Below, piece after piece: positions 1,317-54,597 of a stretch of DNA of 64,000 nt; position 1 is the stretch's first letter, and each line of letters opens with the position of its first letter. The stretch comes from Ktedonobacterales bacterium (GTDB taxonomy: Bacteria; Chloroflexota; Ktedonobacteria; Ktedonobacterales; DATBGS01). Location of the stretch: the NCBI GenBank assembly GCA_036557285.1, contig DATBHW010000042.1:59412-123411 (forward strand). Direction: 5' to 3'. Below the pieces are notes generated by a model, which made no database searches, had not been told where the DNA came from, and saw nothing but the letters and a program-made list of their open reading frames with translations. The position numbers and the translations under genes are program-made.

Positions 1317-2063
1317 ATGAGTACTATTTACCGGCATAGCCCTGTCCCTCGCTATCATCAGTTGAAAGAAATCTTACGAGAAAAGATTCGCTCCGGGGAA
1401 TGGAAGCCTGGCGACCTCATCCCATCTGAACGCGAATTAAGCGAAACCTATGGCATCAGCCGCATGACCACTCGCCAGGCCATCACCGATCTGGTGAACG
1501 AAGGCGTCTTCTACCGCGAGCAAGGCAAAGGCACATTTGTCACCCGCCACAAGATTACCCAGCAATTGATGCGCCTCACCGGCTTTACCGAAGATATTCG
1601 CGCGCGCGGCCAGCAGCCGAGTACAAAAGTGCTTTCGGTCCAGATGCGCCCCGCCACAGAGATCACCGCCGAAAAACTCCGTGTGAGTGTGGGCCATTTG
1701 ATCTTTTGCTTGCACCGGCTGCGCCTCGCCGATGGTGAGCCGCTTGCCATCGAGCTTTCTCATATCAATTTCAAGGGCTGCGAAAAGCTGCTGGAAGAAG
1801 ATTTGGAACAAAACTCACTCTATCGGCTGCTCGAATCGAAATACGGCGTGCCGCTCATGGAAGCCGAGCAAGAACTGGAGGCCGGGCTGGCAGGCAATGA
1901 AGAATCGCAAATCCTGAAAATCCCCGTTGGCAGTTCCGTTCTGTATACCCGCCGCACCACCTTTACTGACCGCTATCAGCCCATCGAGTACGCCAAATCT
2001 GTCTACTGCGGCAACAAATATATCTTCTATACCCACCTTCGGCGCGAGCAGTTGTTCTCTTAG
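1317..2063 (+). CDS. GntR/HutC-family transcriptional regulator (NagR/DasR-like)
   Basis: 248 aa. The N-terminal winged helix (LPSERELSETYGISRMTTRQAITDLVNEGVFYREQGKGTFV) is followed by a UTRA-like C-terminal domain. The gene sits in an amino-sugar gene context. Its TAG stop (2061-2063) lies inside the MITE copy. Confidence 0.85.
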   Translation: MSTIYRHSPVPRYHQLKEILREKIRSGEWKPGDLIPSERELSETYGISRMTTRQAITDLVNEGVFYREQGKGTFVTRHKITQQLMRLTGFTEDIRARGQQPSTKVLSVQMRPATEITAEKLRVSVGHLIFCLHRLRLADGEPLAIELSHINFKGCEKLLEEDLEQNSLYRLLESKYGVPLMEAEQELEAGLAGNEESQILKIPVGSSVLYTRRTTFTDRYQPIEYAKSVYCGNKYIFYTHLRREQLFS

Positions 2064-2165
2064 AGCGCCTCACACAACCTCCGCACGAGCAGGGGCGGGG
2101 TTGTAGCGCCGTCCTTCCAGGCGGCAGGGGTGGGGCCAACCGTCGGTTGTGTGAGGCATTCTTAG
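2059..2165. repeat. 107-bp MITE-like element, copy 1
   Basis: Runs CTTAGAGCGCCTCACACAACC...GGTTGTGTGAGGCATTCTTAG with roughly 20-bp imperfect terminal inverted repeats. It is about 95% identical by eye to the copies at 42921-43027 (inverted) and 52877-52983. Its centre carries the REP core GTAGCGCCGTCCTTCCAGGCGGC. Confidence 0.85.
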
Positions 2166-3145: not shown

Positions 3146-4122
3146 CCAGCATTTCAGCCGATAAACATCCCAATCCTCATTTCCTGGGCATTGACGGCGG
3201 CGGCAGCAAAACGCTGGCCGTGATCGTAGATGCGCAGGGCATCGAGCGCGGGCGCGCGCTGGCTGGCAGCGCAAATTACGCGGCTGTCGGCGTCGAGCAA
3301 GCCATCAAACATCTCCACGCGGCGGCTGAGCAGGCAGCAGCCTGCGCCGCCTGCCGATTGCCTCTCAAGGCCGCGTGGCTTGGCCTGGCAGGCGTTGATC
3401 GGCCCGGCGATCTGGCTCTGCTCCTCCCCTGGCTTCAGTCGCTGGCCGACTTCATCCGTCTCACTAACGACGCCGAACTCCTGCTGAGCGCCCTGGATGA
3501 CGCCGTTGGCGTGGCGCTCGTCGCGGGAACCGGCTCAATCGCCCTGGGGAGAGACGCGCGCGGCGTTATCACGCGCGCTGGCGGTTGGGGGCATATCCTG
3601 GGGGATGAAGGCAGCGGCTATGACATAGGCCGCCTGGCCTTGCAGACGGCAACACGCGCTGCCGATGGCCGGGGCGAGGCCACCGCTCTGCTGGAGCATA
3701 TCATGACCCATTGGAACCTTGATAGACCAGACGATATGATCGGGCGTGTCTATAACAACGATGACAAAGCCGAAATCGCGCGCCTCTCGTCCCTGGTCTT
3801 CCTGGCGGCCCGCGCCGGAGATCACGCGGCGCGCAAGATTACGCGGCACGCCGCAGATGAACTGGCCCTCGCAGCCATCACCGTTTGCAACGCTCTTGAT
3901 TTCTCAGGCGGGCGCGTTGCTCTGGCGCTTGGCGGAGGACTGTTCCTGCACGAAGCCGCTTTCCGCAGCCAGACGCTGCGCCGCATCCGCCGCCGCCAGC
4001 CCCTTGGCCGCGTTGCTATCGTTGATCAGCCCGCGCTCAGCGCCGCCCGCGCGGCTATCCACCTGGAAACGGCCAGCACATGGGCCAACAAGCCAGCGCA
4101 CAATGTCTCTCAAAGGAGATAA
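3142..4122 (+). CDS. BadF/BadG/BcrA/BcrD-type ATPase; GlcNAc/MurNAc kinase (MurK-like)
   Basis: FLGIDGGGSKT phosphate-1 motif plus GTGSIA and GWGHILGDEGSG. A 4-bp ATGA overlap with the murQ stop suggests translational coupling. Confidence 0.75.
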   Translation: MTSISADKHPNPHFLGIDGGGSKTLAVIVDAQGIERGRALAGSANYAAVGVEQAIKHLHAAAEQAAACAACRLPLKAAWLGLAGVDRPGDLALLLPWLQSLADFIRLTNDAELLLSALDDAVGVALVAGTGSIALGRDARGVITRAGGWGHILGDEGSGYDIGRLALQTATRAADGRGEATALLEHIMTHWNLDRPDDMIGRVYNNDDKAEIARLSSLVFLAARAGDHAARKITRHAADELALAAITVCNALDFSGGRVALALGGGLFLHEAAFRSQTLRRIRRRQPLGRVAIVDQPALSAARAAIHLETASTWANKPAHNVSQRR

Positions 4123-18665: not shown

Positions 18666-21600
18666 TTACGGCGTGATGCGCACTTCCAGTGGGCCAGGGT
18701 TCCCCGCCTGCTCCTCCTTGAACATATTGCGCACCAGCACTGCCCAGTGCTGCGCAGGCACATCCTTCGCTCTCGCGCTGCCTGGCGCTGCATGCCCGTT
18801 GCCGTCTGCCATCTCCCCTGGCAGCAGCGTCGGGCCAATAGCAGCCAGCGGCACGCGCAGTTCGGTCTTTTCCGCGAAGTCCAGCGCAAAGCGTTTCACC
18901 TGGCCGCCGCCAACCACGCGCGCCAGCCCATCTGGCAGGCAGACGTGCGCCACCAGACACGGCTCGTAGCGCGGCACACGAATCACCAGATCGAGCGCGT
19001 CGCCCACCTTGAAGACCGGCGCGGGCCTGCCATCCTTCTCCAGCGAAACCTCCACGTTCAGCGCGCTCTGGAAGGTATTCCAGTCCTCCACCAGTTCCGC
19101 CGTCACCTCCACCGTCAGCACACCCTTCAGGCAGGCTACCGATTCCACTCGCTCGGTGGACTCGATGGCTTCCGCCAGCGTCATCTGCTTGCCATTCAGT
19201 TCCAGCGCGTCCGCGCTGCCGCCGGTCACGCCAATGCCCGCCTCGCGCAGACCAATCATCAGCGCCAGCATCGCTCCCGTATCAACGGTGCTATAGAGAA
19301 TGCCCGCTTCGTTAGTCTGGCTGGTCAGATAATTGGTCGCTTTGATGACCAGCGGCAGATCGCGTGGTTCGCCTCCCGCCAGCAACGCGGCAGCCGCATA
19401 AGCCGTCTCCTCGCGTGAGCCGACGGCAGCGCCATGCAGCAGATAGGACGGCTGATCGCGCGGCACACGGACAACTGTTTGCCCATCCTGCTCGCTCAAA
19501 CGGCTGCGAACATACTCAGCCGCCTGCGCCTTCTTGGCGGCGCTGGGGCTGCTTGCCAGAAGCAGATAGGCGTCGTGGCAGTCGTTCACCCGCTCCGGCG
19601 GATACGTGATTTTGTAGACTTTGGCGGCGTCGCTTGCCATGCGACGAATCTCATTGAGAGCTTCGGCCATCGCCTGGCTGATCCCGCTCAAATGCTCTGG
19701 CCTGGGCAAATTCAACTGATGCCGCGTCCCGCCCGGCGCGTAATGATGGTCTGGCCCCCTGCCGCCGCCTTCATTCGGGGGATACATCGTATAACCCCTT
19801 CCCGGCAGATACATGCTCTGAATGCGCTTGACATAGGCCAGCGACGAGCTTTCGTATTCGTCGCGCAGTTCAGGCGTATCCAGGTTGGCGACATAGCCCG
19901 CCACCATCGCCAGCAGCTTGACCGAACTCTGCTCGATGCAGCCATGCGGATACGCGCAGGCCCCCTGCACAAAGACCTGGAAGGGCCGCTCCAGCCCCGG
20001 CAGCACGCGCAGGCTTTGCGCGCCAGCCTCTGCTCTGGTCAGCGTCTCGCCCGCCGTCAGCAGGCGCGTGCGCTTCACGATAGAGCGTATCTGCCCCGGC
20101 GGCGTCACAAAGCGTTCGCTCACATCCGCCTCGCCCGTCACCGCATCCTTCACAATCGCCGTAAATGCCCCTGGCTGCGCGGGGAAGCGCACCACCGCGC
20201 CGCTCTTGACCTCTTCGCCTGGCGCAAGGCGGCGACCATCCACCCACAGCGGTACTGGCTCGCCATCGCGCTGCACCTCCACGCGCGCCCGGCCACTGGC
20301 CGCGCCAACATACAGCGTCCCCTGCGCCTGATCGCCAGGGGAGACGAACGGCGAAAGCGTCAGATCACCATAAACGGGTAGCTGCGCCTCAAGCTGCGCC
20401 TCCTCGCGCGCCCAATCCAGCCCGGCCAGCCCAAACGCCTCGATACTATACGTCGTCAGTGCGTCGCCCAGCTTCACCGCCACCTCAGCCTGCCCCTTGA
20501 CATACACGATGCTGTTGTGAATCACCTCTGGAAACTCGACGCGAATCGGCGTGAGTTCGGCCTTCGCGGCCTGGGCAGGCTCGGCAGCACTCTTCTCAGG
20601 ACTGATAGTAATAGCCCGCGCCATGACCTCGTAGGGCGCAGCCTGCGGAGCAGCCGCTACCATTGCCATAGCCCGGCCACCCATGCGACCCCATCCGCCC
20701 CTTCCCGCAGGCGCGGCGGGCGGCATGCCAGCAAATGTCATCATAGGAGGCGCGGGCGGCAGGGGCGGCTCGTAGCCAGCGGCGTAGAGACTGGCCCCTG
20801 GAGCGCCGATACCTAGCCTGCCACGCTCTGTTGTCAGCGCCGCCTTGATGCGCGCCGCCAGTTCCACCTGCGGGTCGCTTGGCGTGATCAACCGCTGATC
20901 TTTGATAATCACCTGCACCGGCACAACCTGATCAGGCCGGTTTGTGCGCAAGATGATTTTGACGCGCTCGCCCGGCTTCGCTTTGCTGGGCGCTCTCGTC
21001 TCCAGTTTCAGACCGCTGGGACGGAGAGCGGCGCACCAGCCTTCCCAGGCTTTGCCCTTCACAAACGCCCCCACCAGCAGCAGGCCATACGGCGCGGGTA
21101 CAGTGAGCGTCAGCCGCGCGCCCGACGCGATATTCGCCTGCGTCTTGATCTGGGCTGTCTCGCCTGTGGTGGGCGCAATCATCACCGCGCGCAGCAGATC
21201 AACCTGCTCGCGCGCCACCAGTTCCACCTCTTCGCCTATCACCTGGCTCACCAGAAAGGGCGACGTATTCATACCGCGCGGCGAAACGTACAGGCCCCGG
21301 CAGACCTCCGCGCCGGGCAAAGGCAGCAGACTCATCTCCTGCGCCTGCCCTAGTTCGCTGATCGTCAGCGTCTCGCGGCGCTCCTGCTCGGACCCCTTCA
21401 GAGCCACCGTCGCGGTGCGCTCGCCCGCGACCACATTGAGGGTATAGGGACCAGCCCCGGTCAGTTCAACCTTGCCGGAGCAGCGCCCCCGCGCATCGGT
21501 CATCAACTGCTGGCGTTTGCCCACGCGCTGCCCGCGCTCCTGAAGCTCAACCTCCACCGCGCCGCTGTACGGCTGCCCAAAGGCGCGCAGCAGCAACGTG

Positions 21601-42920: not shown

Positions 42921-43027
42921 CTAAGAATGCCTCACACAACCGACGGGTGGCCCCACCCCTGCCGCCTGGAAGGACGGCGCTCCAACCCCGCCCCTGCTCG
43001 TGCGGAGGGTGTGTGAGGCGCTCTAAG
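42921..43027. repeat. 107-bp MITE-like element, copy 2 (inverted)
   Basis: CTAAGAATGCCTCACACAACC...GGTGTGTGAGGCGCTCTAAG. It lies 14 nt upstream of the lactonase start codon. Confidence 0.85.
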
Positions 43028-52279: not shown

Positions 52280-52339
52280 CGCACAAGAACACAATATCGG
52301 CCCAGTAGCGCATCTTTTTTAGTGCGAACAACGCTCATC

Positions 52340-52656
52340 TCTTGCCTCCTGCAAAGCACAACGGCGTGCTATACGCAGCGCAAAAGAGAAGCACCAAGTC
52401 GGTGAGGAGCAGGAAAGCGCCCGGCGGCTCTATGCCCAACGGACGCCGATAGATGAGAGCTTCGGCTGATAAGACACCGGGGCGCAACCTCGCGCCAGGG
52501 ACATCTATGTCGTACTGCGCTGCGGCCCAAACACACCGCACCAGACGAGCATGAGGCAGAAACGCCTGCCCAACCGGGCGACGAAGCGCCACCGGCGCTC
52601 AGTTGTAAGAAGCGTATCTCTATCCAGAACCAACCGGAATGAAACAGAAGACAAAA
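52340..52656 (+). ncRNA. Candidate structured noncoding RNA or long 3' UTR (unclassified)
   Basis: About 320 nt with no credible ORF on either strand. Many local hairpins: AGCACaacggcGUGCU, AGCuucgGCU, GGCGCaaccucGCGCC, AGCGCCaccGGCGCU. It ends at a strong terminator hairpin. Confidence 0.25.
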
Positions 52657-52699
52657 ACGGCAGCAGTGTTTCCACGCCCGCACTGCTGCCGTCTTTTTG
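52657..52699 (+). terminator. Strong bidirectional-looking intrinsic terminator
   Basis: ACGGCAGCAGTG, 12-nt loop, CACTGCTGCCGT, then CTTTTTG. An A-run (ACAAAAA) lies upstream. Confidence 0.65.
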
Positions 52700-52713
52700 C
52701 AAGTAATTTCTTC

Positions 52714-52743
52714 TTGACGTTTTGTTGGCCGGTGTGATAGAGT
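52714..52743 (+). promoter_or_regulatory. Candidate promoter of the aspS leader
   Basis: TTGACG (52714-52719), 18-nt spacer, TAGAGT (52738-52743), about 20 nt before Stem I. Confidence 0.4.
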
Positions 52744-52762
52744 CACATTACAAGAAAGAAAC

Positions 52763-53147
52763 GGCTGTGATGGGGACGGGTTCGGAGGCTACACAGCGTT
52801 CAGAGAGCGATGTCCTGGCTGAGAACAGCGCCGCTGCTCCTCTCGAATGACCCCCCTGAGCCAACCAGTGAACTGGCTTAGAGCGCCTCACACAACCTCC
52901 ACACGAGCAGGGGCGGGGTTGTAGCGCCGTCCTGCCAGGCGGCAGGGGTGGGGCCAACCGCCGGTTTTGTGAGGCATTCTTAGCTGCGCCATAGTAACTG
53001 GCTTCGGCAGCGCCCGTTATCGCGCGATGGTTTCTTGCTTCCCCTTGAACAGAAGCATCAACCGCTGAGGCCCCACGTTGGGGCAAATGGTGGTGGTACC
53101 ACGATACGGCTGTACGCCCTCGTCCTCCAAACGGACGAGGGCTTTTT
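52763..53147 (+). promoter_or_regulatory. T-box riboswitch leader of aspS, interrupted by a MITE
   Basis: Stem I spans 52763-52862. It has a K-turn (GGC-UGU-GA-UGGGG ... CCCC-U-GA-GCC), an AG bulge AGAGAG at 52802-52807, a distal loop CCUGGCUGAGA and specifier-loop sequence GAAUGACC. The T-box sequence AAAUGGUGGUGGUACCACG is at 53085-53103. The terminator GCCCUCGUCC/GGACGAGGGC plus U5 is at 53116-53147. Confidence 0.7.
52877..52983. repeat. 107-bp MITE-like element, copy 3 (inside the T-box leader)
   Basis: CTTAGAGCGCCTCACACAACC...GGTTTTGTGAGGCATTCTTAG. It starts 15 nt after Stem I. Confidence 0.85.
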
Positions 53148-53289
53148 GTCGCTCGCACAGAGCTGGAGCAACGATATGCGTGACAACGATCTTCGGGAAG
53201 GCGTCTAACGCCCTGCCTGGCCTGCCCAGGACGCCCTTCCCAATCACTCCAGGGCAGGCAAACATCACTGAAGACAGGGAGGGATTTGC

Positions 53290-54597
53290 ATGCAGCGTAT
53301 TCGCACAACTGAGGCTCGCGCACACCAGGGCGAGCGCGTTTCTGTCGCTGGCTGGCTCCATTCACTCCGACGCCTGGGAGCCGTGAACTTTCTCGTCATT
53401 CGTGACGGCTGGGGGACCATCCAGGCCGTCGCAGAGAGCGAAGCTGAATTAGCGCCGCTCCTGGCAGAAGAGGCAGGCGTAGAAACTGTTCTGGCAATCG
53501 AAGGGCTGGTTGTCAGCAATGCGCAGGCTCCTGGCGGCTGTGAATTGCACGAATTGTCCATCAAGCTGATCGCGCCGGTCACTGAAGCGCCTCCGGTAAC
53601 GATCAGCAAGCGCGCCGTCAAGGCCAGCCAGAGTACCATCCTCGACCATGCCGTCGTCACAAACCGCCATCCAGAGCGGCGCGCCATCCTTCAACTCGGC
53701 GCAGGCGTCCTGGCTGGCTTCCGGGCTGCCCTGGGAGAGCAAGGCTTTACCGAGATACAAACGCCCAAGATCGTTGCCTCCGCCACCGAAAGCGGCGCAA
53801 ACGTCTTTTGCCTCGACTATTTTGGGCGGCCAGCCTATCTGGCACAAAGTCCGCAGTTTTACAAGCAGATCATGGTGGGCGTCTTCGAGCGCGTCTTCGA
53901 GGTTGGCCCAGTCTTTCGCGCAGAGCCACATGATACCGCGCGCCATATCAACGAATATGTGAGCCTGGATGTGGAGTTTGGCTTTATCGAAAGCCATCAT
54001 ACCGTGATGGCGCTTTTACGCGACCTGCTGGCGAGCATCTTTACAACATTGGCACAGCGCCATGCTGACGAGCTAGCCCTACTGGAGACGAAGCTGCCCG
54101 CTGTGCCTGTCGAGATTCCCAGCATTCACTTCAGCGACGCCCAGGAACTCATCTACCAGCGTCATGGCGCCGACGTGCGTGGCGAACCCGACCTTTCGCC
54201 CCAGGACGAGCGCCGACTTGGCGAATGGGCGCGTGAACAATTCGGCAGCGATTTCCTGTATGTGATCGGCTACCCGATGCGCAAACGCCCATTCTATACA
54301 CATCCAGACCCATCGCGTCCAGAATATTCCAACTCATTCGACTTGATCTTCCGGGGCATGGAACTGGCTACAGGTGGGCAGCGCCTGCATCGCTACGCCG
54401 ATTACATTGCGGCGCTGGAGGCAGCGCATTTGCCCATCGAACCATTCGAGGCGTATATCGAAGCGTTCCGTTACGGCATGCCGCCACATGGAGGGTTTGC
54501 CTTCGGCCTGGAGCGTTTGTTGATGCAGCTTACTGGCGTCTCAAACATCAAGCTGGCTGCACTCTTCCCCCGCGACCTTGCGCGGCTTACACCCTAA
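53290..54597 (+). CDS. aspS: Aspartate--tRNA ligase, type 2 (archaeal/eukaryotic-like; possibly non-discriminating)
   Basis: 435 aa. OB-fold N-terminus VSVAGWLHSLRRLGAVNFLVIRD. Motif 2: VGPVFRAEPHDTARHINEY. Motif 3: GGFAFGLERL. GGGAGGG RBS. Confidence 0.9.
   Translation: MQRIRTTEARAHQGERVSVAGWLHSLRRLGAVNFLVIRDGWGTIQAVAESEAELAPLLAEEAGVETVLAIEGLVVSNAQAPGGCELHELSIKLIAPVTEAPPVTISKRAVKASQSTILDHAVVTNRHPERRAILQLGAGVLAGFRAALGEQGFTEIQTPKIVASATESGANVFCLDYFGRPAYLAQSPQFYKQIMVGVFERVFEVGPVFRAEPHDTARHINEYVSLDVEFGFIESHHTVMALLRDLLASIFTTLAQRHADELALLETKLPAVPVEIPSIHFSDAQELIYQRHGADVRGEPDLSPQDERRLGEWAREQFGSDFLYVIGYPMRKRPFYTHPDPSRPEYSNSFDLIFRGMELATGGQRLHRYADYIAALEAAHLPIEPFEAYIEAFRYGMPPHGGFAFGLERLLMQLTGVSNIKLAALFPRDLARLTP

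Follow-up and report, generated by a model that had tools for sequence, protein, structure and literature searches.

What becomes of a tRNA-sensing riboswitch when a mobile repeat lands inside it? The question is raised by the leader of aspS, an aspartyl-tRNA synthetase (AspRS) gene in a 64,000-nucleotide stretch of a Ktedonobacterales genome (assembly GCA_036557285.1, contig DATBHW010000042.1; hereafter the window, 60% G+C). A sequence-only reading of the window had described a 107-bp miniature inverted-repeat transposable element (MITE) inside the transcribed T-box leader of aspS, between Stem I and the antiterminator, and had left two outcomes, a tolerated insertion or a disabled switch. 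Our analysis bears out the core of that description, places the element in the apical loop of Stem II, and favours tolerance as judged from the sequence of the leader and its relatives. Downstream of the T-box terminator, the leader also carries a short upstream open reading frame (uORF) with Asp and Asn codons that may add a second layer of control.

The repeat was delimited exactly by the sequence-only reading, and two further copies lie elsewhere in the window. All three are exactly 107 bp long with unrelated flanks, and a 23-mer from the MITE end matches three times in the window versus never in 100 shuffles. The end sequence of the element is GAGCGCCTCACA, and its terminal inverted repeats, GAGCGCCUCACA and UGUGAGGCAUUC, are imperfect; by hand count, CTTAGAGCGCCTCACA and TGTGAGGCATTCTTAG match at 13 of 16 positions. 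The predicted RNA fold of the element (-52.6 kcal/mol, z -3.7) pairs its ends with each other, giving the self-pairing hairpin that had been anticipated. CTTAG is present at both ends in every copy, and a target duplication is therefore inseparable from the element ends. The copies are all intergenic and co-oriented with flanking genes, an orientation count (3/3) that is not significant. At the copy that follows the GntR/UTRA regulator gene (1317-2063), the TAG stop codon of that gene falls within the left-hand CTTAG. Searches of plasmids, of viral contigs and of about 850 kb from relatives' loci gave no match, and about 140 kb from the closest relatives is devoid of copies. A scan of metagenome contigs for a MITE 21-mer also returned nothing, a weak result in that the source contig itself was not returned and the sample is apparently absent from the collection. 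Overall, the repeat is a MITE in each respect that can be tested, being short, non-coding and dispersed in near-identical copies with terminal inverted repeats. It resembles described bacterial MITEs (PMC10969869) in these features and in its multiple intergenic copies and RNA hairpin, and differs in having matched only within its source organism among the plasmids, viral contigs and relatives' loci scanned.

A repeat in a metagenomic contig could have been misplaced during assembly, and the short-read Logan contigs do break within the element, one ending at 52923 and another starting at 52937 in contigs from two SRA runs. These same breakpoints, however, mean that both junctions (from 52877 and to 52983) were seen independently. 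Furthermore, the window DNA is identical to part of a contig in JGI metagenome 3300036835, and a second JGI sample (L085) has an identical leader including the MITE while differing by two single-nucleotide polymorphisms elsewhere, at 52611 and 52623. Contigs from both JGI samples span the whole MITE-bearing leader. The insertion is not an artefact of a single assembly, and misplacement of the repeat is so improbable that we set it aside. The empty-site allele, sought as a 23-mer in metagenome contigs, was not found in what was a weak scan of a collection apparently without this sample.

The leader that received the element is a complete transcriptional T-box. In E-value mode, the whole RF00230 model (1-219) aligned end to end across the MITE, to 52758-53130 (56.3 bits, E 1.4e-11), leaving a 123-nt block unaligned in the loop of the stem after Stem I. 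Together with the terminator the leader measures about 390 nt, in line with the unusual length (about 385 nt) given by the sequence-only reading. RF00230 detected no other T-box in the 64-kb window, including a separate or complete one lying solely 3′ of the MITE. At the Rfam gathering score of 93 bits there was no match in the window or in 16 relatives, and T-boxes were visible in E-value mode only. Eight MITE-less homologues scored 43.7-87.7 bits, a further three, the closest (L090, L092, L095), scored 66.0-75.1 bits, and every aspS T-box that we scored (the window; L001-L009, L090, L092, L095) fell below the gathering score. The sub-threshold score is therefore clade-wide and not due to the MITE. 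Locus L092 also contains a second T-box (19976-20274, 72.8 bits) just upstream of an ornithine carbamoyltransferase gene (20359-21303).

Individual modules were compared with those of related leaders, drawn from 80 Chloroflexota loci with a related aspS, most of which have a T-box upstream of the gene. Stem I contains a kink-turn (K-turn; GGC-UGU-GA-U-GGGG ... CCCC-U-GA-GCC) and two T-loops, formed by AGAGAG at 52802-52807 and the distal loop GGCUGAGAA at 52817-52825, and the RF00230 alignment agrees with the Stem I coordinates first assigned by eye. The T-box sequence AAAUGGUGGUGGUACCACG (53085-53103) and the intrinsic terminator were likewise located correctly from the start. The fourth base of the T-box bulge, UGGU in the window, is C in 38 and U in 29 relatives. 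Bacterial tRNA-Asp and tRNA-Asn have the discriminator base G73, which a bulge U or C fits. The 5′ strand of the terminator overlaps the 3′ strand of the antiterminator, and the terminator is nearly invariant in the clade. In a covariance-model-based alignment of 67 leaders, the Stem IIA helix (the second helix of that alignment) is 96.6% paired, and the GCGC downstream of it is able to form the IIB pseudoknot.

Where in this architecture does the element sit? Relatives' leaders share, 3′ of the K-turn, a Stem II made of a 5-bp base helix and an apex of variable length, followed by the IIA hairpin with its CCGUUA; the S-turn of Stem II combines a 5′ GAA with a 3′ AGUA or ACUA. When the strands of the base helix were set by flanking anchors only, such that complementarity played no part in selection, 221 of 285 cells were paired, versus 177 ± 5.5 after shuffling (maximum 197 in 2000 shuffles). 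In the 67-leader alignment all five base pairs have changed on both sides and 90.9% of cells are paired; none of 500 shuffles reached the observed value, and slid controls were 21-48% paired. Our own covariance model of Stem II matched the window only at 52849-52890 (25 bits) and did not span the MITE, which probably reflects the maximum hit length of the model.

Above the S-turn, an upper helix of UGGC and GCCA closes the loop that holds the MITE. Removal of the element with one CTTAG leaves CUGGC-UUAGCUGC-GCCAU, a 4-bp helix with an 8-nt loop, and the homologous apex in L092 is CUGGC-UGGACAC-GCCAC. The closest relatives, whose AspRS is 82-86% identical and whose gene order is the same, have the same leader without the MITE. 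The distance from AGAGAG to the T-box sequence is 189-194 nt in these relatives and 290 nt (188 + 102) in the window, and the comparison with MITE-less leaders that the sequence-only reading had called for shows that removing 102 nt restores the relatives' spacing. The length of the Stem II apex varies widely among relatives, between about 9 and 96 nt with a median of 22, compared with 120 nt in the window and 18 before the insertion, and long apices fold as end-to-end hairpins. By this comparison, the MITE occupies the predicted apical loop of Stem II and prolongs that stem. The earlier placement between Stem I and the antiterminator thus stands, while the idea of a free extra stem gives way to a lengthened Stem II; Stem II, IIA/B and III had all been missed.

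Several relatives of the Caldilineae type have a 54-96-nt apex hairpin built of heptamer repeats (GGTAATC, AGTAATC and their complements). The same heptamers recur elsewhere in these loci (L032 3692-3766, 5331-5344 and 8888-8981; L070 3705-3779; L051 3571-3648; L073 5317 and 6296), and dispersed repeats therefore occupy the Stem II apex in other lineages too.

The specifier loop had been read as containing both an Asp codon (GAC, 52849-52851) and an Asn codon (AAU, 52846-52848). Both positions were correct, and the choice between them, which had been left open, is made by homology of the register. Because the K-turn fixes the GGGG/CCCC helix, the 3′ side of the specifier loop is GAAUGACC, which reads GAA (S-turn), U, GAC, C. 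At the codon position so defined, GAC is found in 63 of 67 relatives and AAC in the other four. The triplet before it comes in 21 versions and encodes Asn in only 20 of the 67; given this variability and its overlap with the S-turn (GAA plus spacer), we rejected AAU as the specifier. C-ending specifiers also dominate in two-codon families (TBDB preprint, 10.1101/2020.06.17.157016). Comparison with relatives hence assigns GAC as the specifier, with tRNA-Asp as the predicted ligand. In about 60 of the 67 relatives an A follows the codon; five others have C (L036, L059), U (L011, L060) or G (L066). The four AAC leaders all precede type-2 aspS genes (L019, ~3419-3435; L024, ~3643-3655; L079 and L080, upstream of 4001), where a one-base change has apparently placed the same gene family under tRNA-Asn control.

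The gene under this leader encodes a class II synthetase of 435 aa (Pfam; 53290-54597) that scores above the cut-offs of both NCBIfam equivalogs for aspartate--tRNA(Asn) ligase (529.6 bits versus 353, and 387.4 bits versus 368.4). These matches identify the predicted product as a non-discriminating type-2 AspRS; the sequence-only reading had noted that type-2 enzymes are often of this kind. Chloroflexi genomes analysed by Wels et al. 2008 are without an asparaginyl-tRNA synthetase and form Asn-tRNA by transamidation (PMC2494555). A sigma-70-type promoter is predicted to start transcripts just 5′ of Stem I. It is the only promoter-like site within 52300-53400, with none 3′ of Stem I, and the MITE therefore lies within the transcript; a promoter borne by the MITE itself was sought and not found.

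Does the switch still work? The flanks are predicted to fold alike whether or not the MITE is present, and the two predictions differ by -50.8 kcal/mol, near the value for the element alone. The MITE-deleted leader deviates at four of 106 clade columns that are at least 85% conserved, ranking 17th of 41 when leaders are left out one at a time. Every module is intact, from the K-turn, both T-loops and the S-turns through IIA/B and Stem III to the T-box bulge, antiterminator and terminator. What matters for function in Stem II is its mid-stem S-turn, and insertions have been found in all T-box domains (Zhang 2020, PMC7583486). In the mechanism we propose, the 107-bp element would have inserted at CTTAG in the 8-nt apical loop for a net gain of 102 nt, and its paired terminal inverted repeats would form a self-contained, irregular RNA hairpin that lengthens Stem II. 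This hairpin would point away from the working parts, namely the mid-Stem II S-turn, the IIA/B hinge and the discriminator, and uncharged tRNA-Asp would stabilise the antiterminator to give read-through into aspS. We infer continued antitermination from the anatomy, the insertion site, the autonomous fold of the element, the codon register, the conservation of the modules and the natural variation in apex length, and on this basis the insertion is probably tolerated in a T-box that still works.

Several observations weigh against that conclusion. The RF00230 score of the window is 10-19 bits below those of the closest MITE-less leaders, and its 120-nt apex exceeds the longest in relatives (96 nt). 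Two changes private to this lineage lie in the specifier loop, where A has become G at 52778 (5′ strand) and C at 52852. All closest relatives have A at both sites, and the second change removes the usual post-codon purine. These changes could weaken tRNA binding, and they could equally be neutral, compensatory or mildly damaging. Within the element, the leader copy has GGTTTTGTG where the other two copies have GGTTGTGTG, a G-to-T change that creates a weak terminator-like hairpin with a T-run (52947-52971). By analogy with the S. aureus met T-box leader, on which RNase III is reported to act (PMC7913692), the long imperfect MITE duplex could attract this nuclease. Finally, the insertion was seen in one lineage only, and there is therefore no sign of its long-term retention.

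The low score, the two private substitutions at conserved specifier-loop positions, the terminator-like site and the single-lineage occurrence would all suit a T-box that the MITE has disabled, whether by disturbed co-transcriptional folding or by separation of Stem I from the discriminator. The terminator would then be constitutive or the leader would decay, and aspS would need the downstream uORF module or leaky read-through for its expression. There should, however, be strong selection against a constitutive terminator ahead of what is possibly the sole AspRS gene, yet the terminator is perfectly preserved. The other modules are also intact with an ordinary deviation from consensus, the promoter search offered no way around the terminator, and relatives retain 54-96-nt hairpins at the same spot. 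We consider a disabled T-box unlikely. Still less probable is that the hairpin has been co-opted, as a pause site that widens the decision window, as a processing site for RNase III or another enzyme that sets mRNA stability, or as a new contact. The stability of the MITE structure and the intergenic, co-oriented position of all copies would be compatible with such a role, and lineage-specific insertions may have functions (Zhang 2020, PMC7583486). However, the co-orientation lacks significance, the leader copy is unremarkable for its family, with 93-96% identity to the other copies, the leaders of the closest relatives lack it, and no sequence feature indicates a specific added function. A tolerated insertion is the reading we retain.

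The 140-nt interval between the terminator and aspS is not a plain spacer. It contains a GGAG Shine-Dalgarno (SD) sequence, 7 nt, and a 10-codon uORF, ATG CGT GAC AAC GAT CTT CGG GAA GGC GTC TAA, encoding MRDNDLREGV with D-N-D inside. Across six leaders, invariant positions make up 18% of the terminator-SD spacer, 100% of the SD (4/4), 0% of the SD-ATG spacer and 76% of the uORF (25/33), compared with 57% of the first 30 nt of aspS. Synonymous changes (GAT/GAC, CTT/CTG, GTC/GTT) and the stop-preserving TAA/TAG are among the differences within the uORF, as are amino-acid changes at codons 2, 7 and 9. At the corresponding site, more distant leaders with long spacers encode peptides that are more extreme still: MADDENDNDIEEGA; MDNDGDDNDREEGTEHL (Dictyobacter); MPDDDDCSDDSDLEG; MDDDDDTGDANPGEDA; and MNDEDADDNDNDDNDDNDRRVCAL. 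Cultured relatives with a uORF of this kind include Dictyobacter alpinus, D. aurantiacus and D. arantiisoli (L009, L011, L013). Asp/Asn-rich uORFs occur in 15 of 79 homologous leaders, versus 5.25 ± 2.0 in shuffles.

The uORF runs into a covarying fold. Helices A:B and C:C′ follow each other in the strand order A-C-B-C′, an H-type pseudoknot topology in which A lies inside the 3′ end of the uORF. Invariant positions amount to 88-92% of strands C, B and C′ and 20-27% of the loops between helices in the same six leaders. In 11 sequences, 95.9% of the cells of the two helices are paired and seven pairs have changed on both sides, whereas no shuffle out of 500 reached the observed value and slid controls were 33-52% paired. 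Loci L058, L061 and L063 have the same topology with unrelated sequences, their helices having been identified by eye. A U-tract after C′ was looked for and is absent; in the absence of such a terminator, the output is more likely translational, or exerted through Rho or mRNA stability. Ribosome-masked folding with ViennaRNA raised SD accessibility with a ribosome at the uORF stop, a result that was noisy and inconsistent between homologues, and ViennaRNA duplex z-scores for the uORF helices were also noisy and gave no consistent regulatory logic.

Taken together, conservation, codon content and fold make it an evenly balanced proposition that the uORF encodes a leader peptide for Asp and Asn and that ribosome-mediated control through it works in tandem with the T-box. 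As the first stage of such a sensor, the T-box would sense tRNA-Asp through GAC at transcription. The Asp/Asn-rich peptide (MRDNDLREGV here; up to ...DDNDNDDNDDND... in relatives) would then read the charging of tRNA-Asp and tRNA-Asn, with ribosome stalling just 5′ of the pseudoknot-type fold setting aspS translation or mRNA fate. Its codons correspond to tRNA-Asp and tRNA-Asn, the two tRNAs that a non-discriminating AspRS serves. The combined picture, in which the aspS leader is a two-stage sensor and MITEs or dispersed hairpin repeats in the Stem II apex are a visible route to lineage-specific insertions, could in our judgement go either way.

Comparison with known systems separates what is ordinary in this leader from what is new. 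Relative to a long Stem I transcriptional T-box with Stem II (RF00230; B. subtilis tyrS), all canonical modules are present in the canonical order, with a specifier that matches the regulated synthetase, a UGGN bulge and a mutually exclusive terminator and antiterminator. It differs in the 102-nt gain from a mobile element in the Stem II apex, in the post-codon C and in the sub-gathering score, the last being shared by the whole Chloroflexota aspS clade. The T-box is thus an ordinary family member in every structural respect tested, except for the post-codon purine and the Rfam threshold. Insertions in the S. aureus glyS and met T-boxes (PMC4574755, PMC11404447, PMC7913692) likewise place extra structured RNA in an otherwise canonical leader; in the aspS leader, by contrast, the insert is a recognisable dispersed repeat with other genomic copies, and its origin by transposition into a loop is visible.

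The closest parallel to the downstream module that we can name is the B. subtilis rtpA (anti-TRAP) operon, where a T-box terminator is followed by a cognate-codon ORF, the Trp-codon leader peptide rtpLP (Chen and Yanofsky 2003/2004, cited in PMC10327191). There tRNA is sensed in tandem at transcription and translation, an arrangement that the aspS leader may share. The aspS leader differs in that the regulated gene is an aminoacyl-tRNA synthetase gene, the codons are Asp and Asn, and the uORF ends in a covarying pseudoknot-type fold instead of overlapping a downstream SD. Leader-peptide attenuators such as those of pheST in gamma-proteobacteria and of trpS and leuS in Streptomyces (PMC1262725) similarly have a cognate-codon ORF before an aminoacyl-tRNA synthetase gene and overlapping alternative helices; the aspS leader differs in having no U-tract terminator after C:C′. 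In the open-access literature we found no report of a MITE in a T-box or of an aspS leader peptide, and the one review containing both terms only speculates on T-box-like motifs in BOX elements. What appears new is a T-box with a mobile element extending its Stem II and, downstream of it, a previously undescribed candidate Asp/Asn leader-peptide module.

Table 1. Features of the aspS leader and copies of the repeat, in window coordinates.
Feature	Position	Strand	Basis
Complete transcriptional T-box leader of aspS, ~390 nt with MITE	52758-53147	+	RF00230
Sigma-70-type promoter: TTGACG, 18-nt spacer, TG, TAGAGT	52714-52743	+	promoter-like sequence
Stem I: K-turn, specifier loop, AGAGAG bulge, distal loop	52763-52862	+	sequence and Rfam alignment
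Specifier codon GAC (Asp), then C at 52852	52849-52851	+	homology of register
Stem II, 5′ strand: base helix CCAGU (52865-69) and S-turn GAA (52870-72)	52865-52872	+	covariation, 67 leaders
Upper Stem II helix, 5′ strand UGGC; partner GCCA at 52988-52991	52874-52877	+	sequence
MITE-like repeat, 107 bp, Stem II apical loop	52877-52983	+	repeat comparison, fold
Stem II, 3′ strand: GCCA, U, S-turn AGUA (52993-96), base helix ACUGG (52997-53001)	52988-53001	+	covariation
Stem IIA hairpin CGGC..CCCG with conserved CCGUUA; GCGC downstream	53005-53027	+	Rfam alignment
Stem III GCCCCA-CGU-UGGGGC, then T-box sequence	53069-53103	+	sequence and Rfam alignment
Intrinsic terminator: 10-bp stem (53116-53142) and U5 (53143-53147)	53116-53147	+	sequence, alignment
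SD GGAG (53165-68) and 10-codon uORF (53176-53208)	53165-53208	+	conservation, six leaders
Helices A (53195-205):B (53230-41) and C (53220-27):C′ (53252-59)	53195-53259	+	covariation
aspS SD CAGGGAGGGA, then aspS (53290-54597)	53275-84	+	
Second MITE copy, 96.3% identical, between GntR/UTRA regulator gene and SIS-domain gene	2059-2165	+	
Third MITE copy, 93.5% identical, between epimerase gene and MBL-fold hydrolase gene	42921-43027	-	

Just 5′ of the aspS promoter, a strong hairpin (52655-52697) is flanked by an A-run and a T-run (AAAAACGGCAGCAGTG...CACTGCTGCCGTCTTTTT) and is probably a bidirectional terminator that insulates the aspS leader. Two short JGI contigs have their breakpoints at this hairpin. 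The region 5′ of the leader varies among close relatives (L090 8073-9362; L091 7829-9424; L095 8719-9489), containing a mannosyltransferase-like gene, an IS605 OrfB/TnpB gene or a Thg1-like gene, which suggests a local insertion hot spot. In the JGI gene calls, a 114-aa ORF on the minus strand (53017-53361) runs over the T-box, terminator and uORF, and aspS is started at 53383, 31 codons late, to give 404 aa. Both calls are apparent misannotations, brought about by the length and structure of the leader.

The aspS leader has consequences for annotation and for the biology of T-boxes. Gene callers place a spurious ORF over such a leader and shorten aspS, and standard annotation at the Rfam threshold misses a whole Chloroflexota clade of aspS T-boxes. 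Lineage-specific insertions in every T-box domain are named as an open problem in reviews (PMC7583486), and in this leader the source of one of them is evident from the sequence, a mobile repeat in the Stem II apical loop. The MITE-less leaders of sister lineages are natural controls for how much extra RNA Stem II tolerates and for the kinetic window of the switch. If the Asp/Asn uORF acts as proposed, it would be a second example of tandem control by a T-box and a leader peptide, and it would explain how a synthetase that serves two tRNAs can be regulated through the sensing of both.

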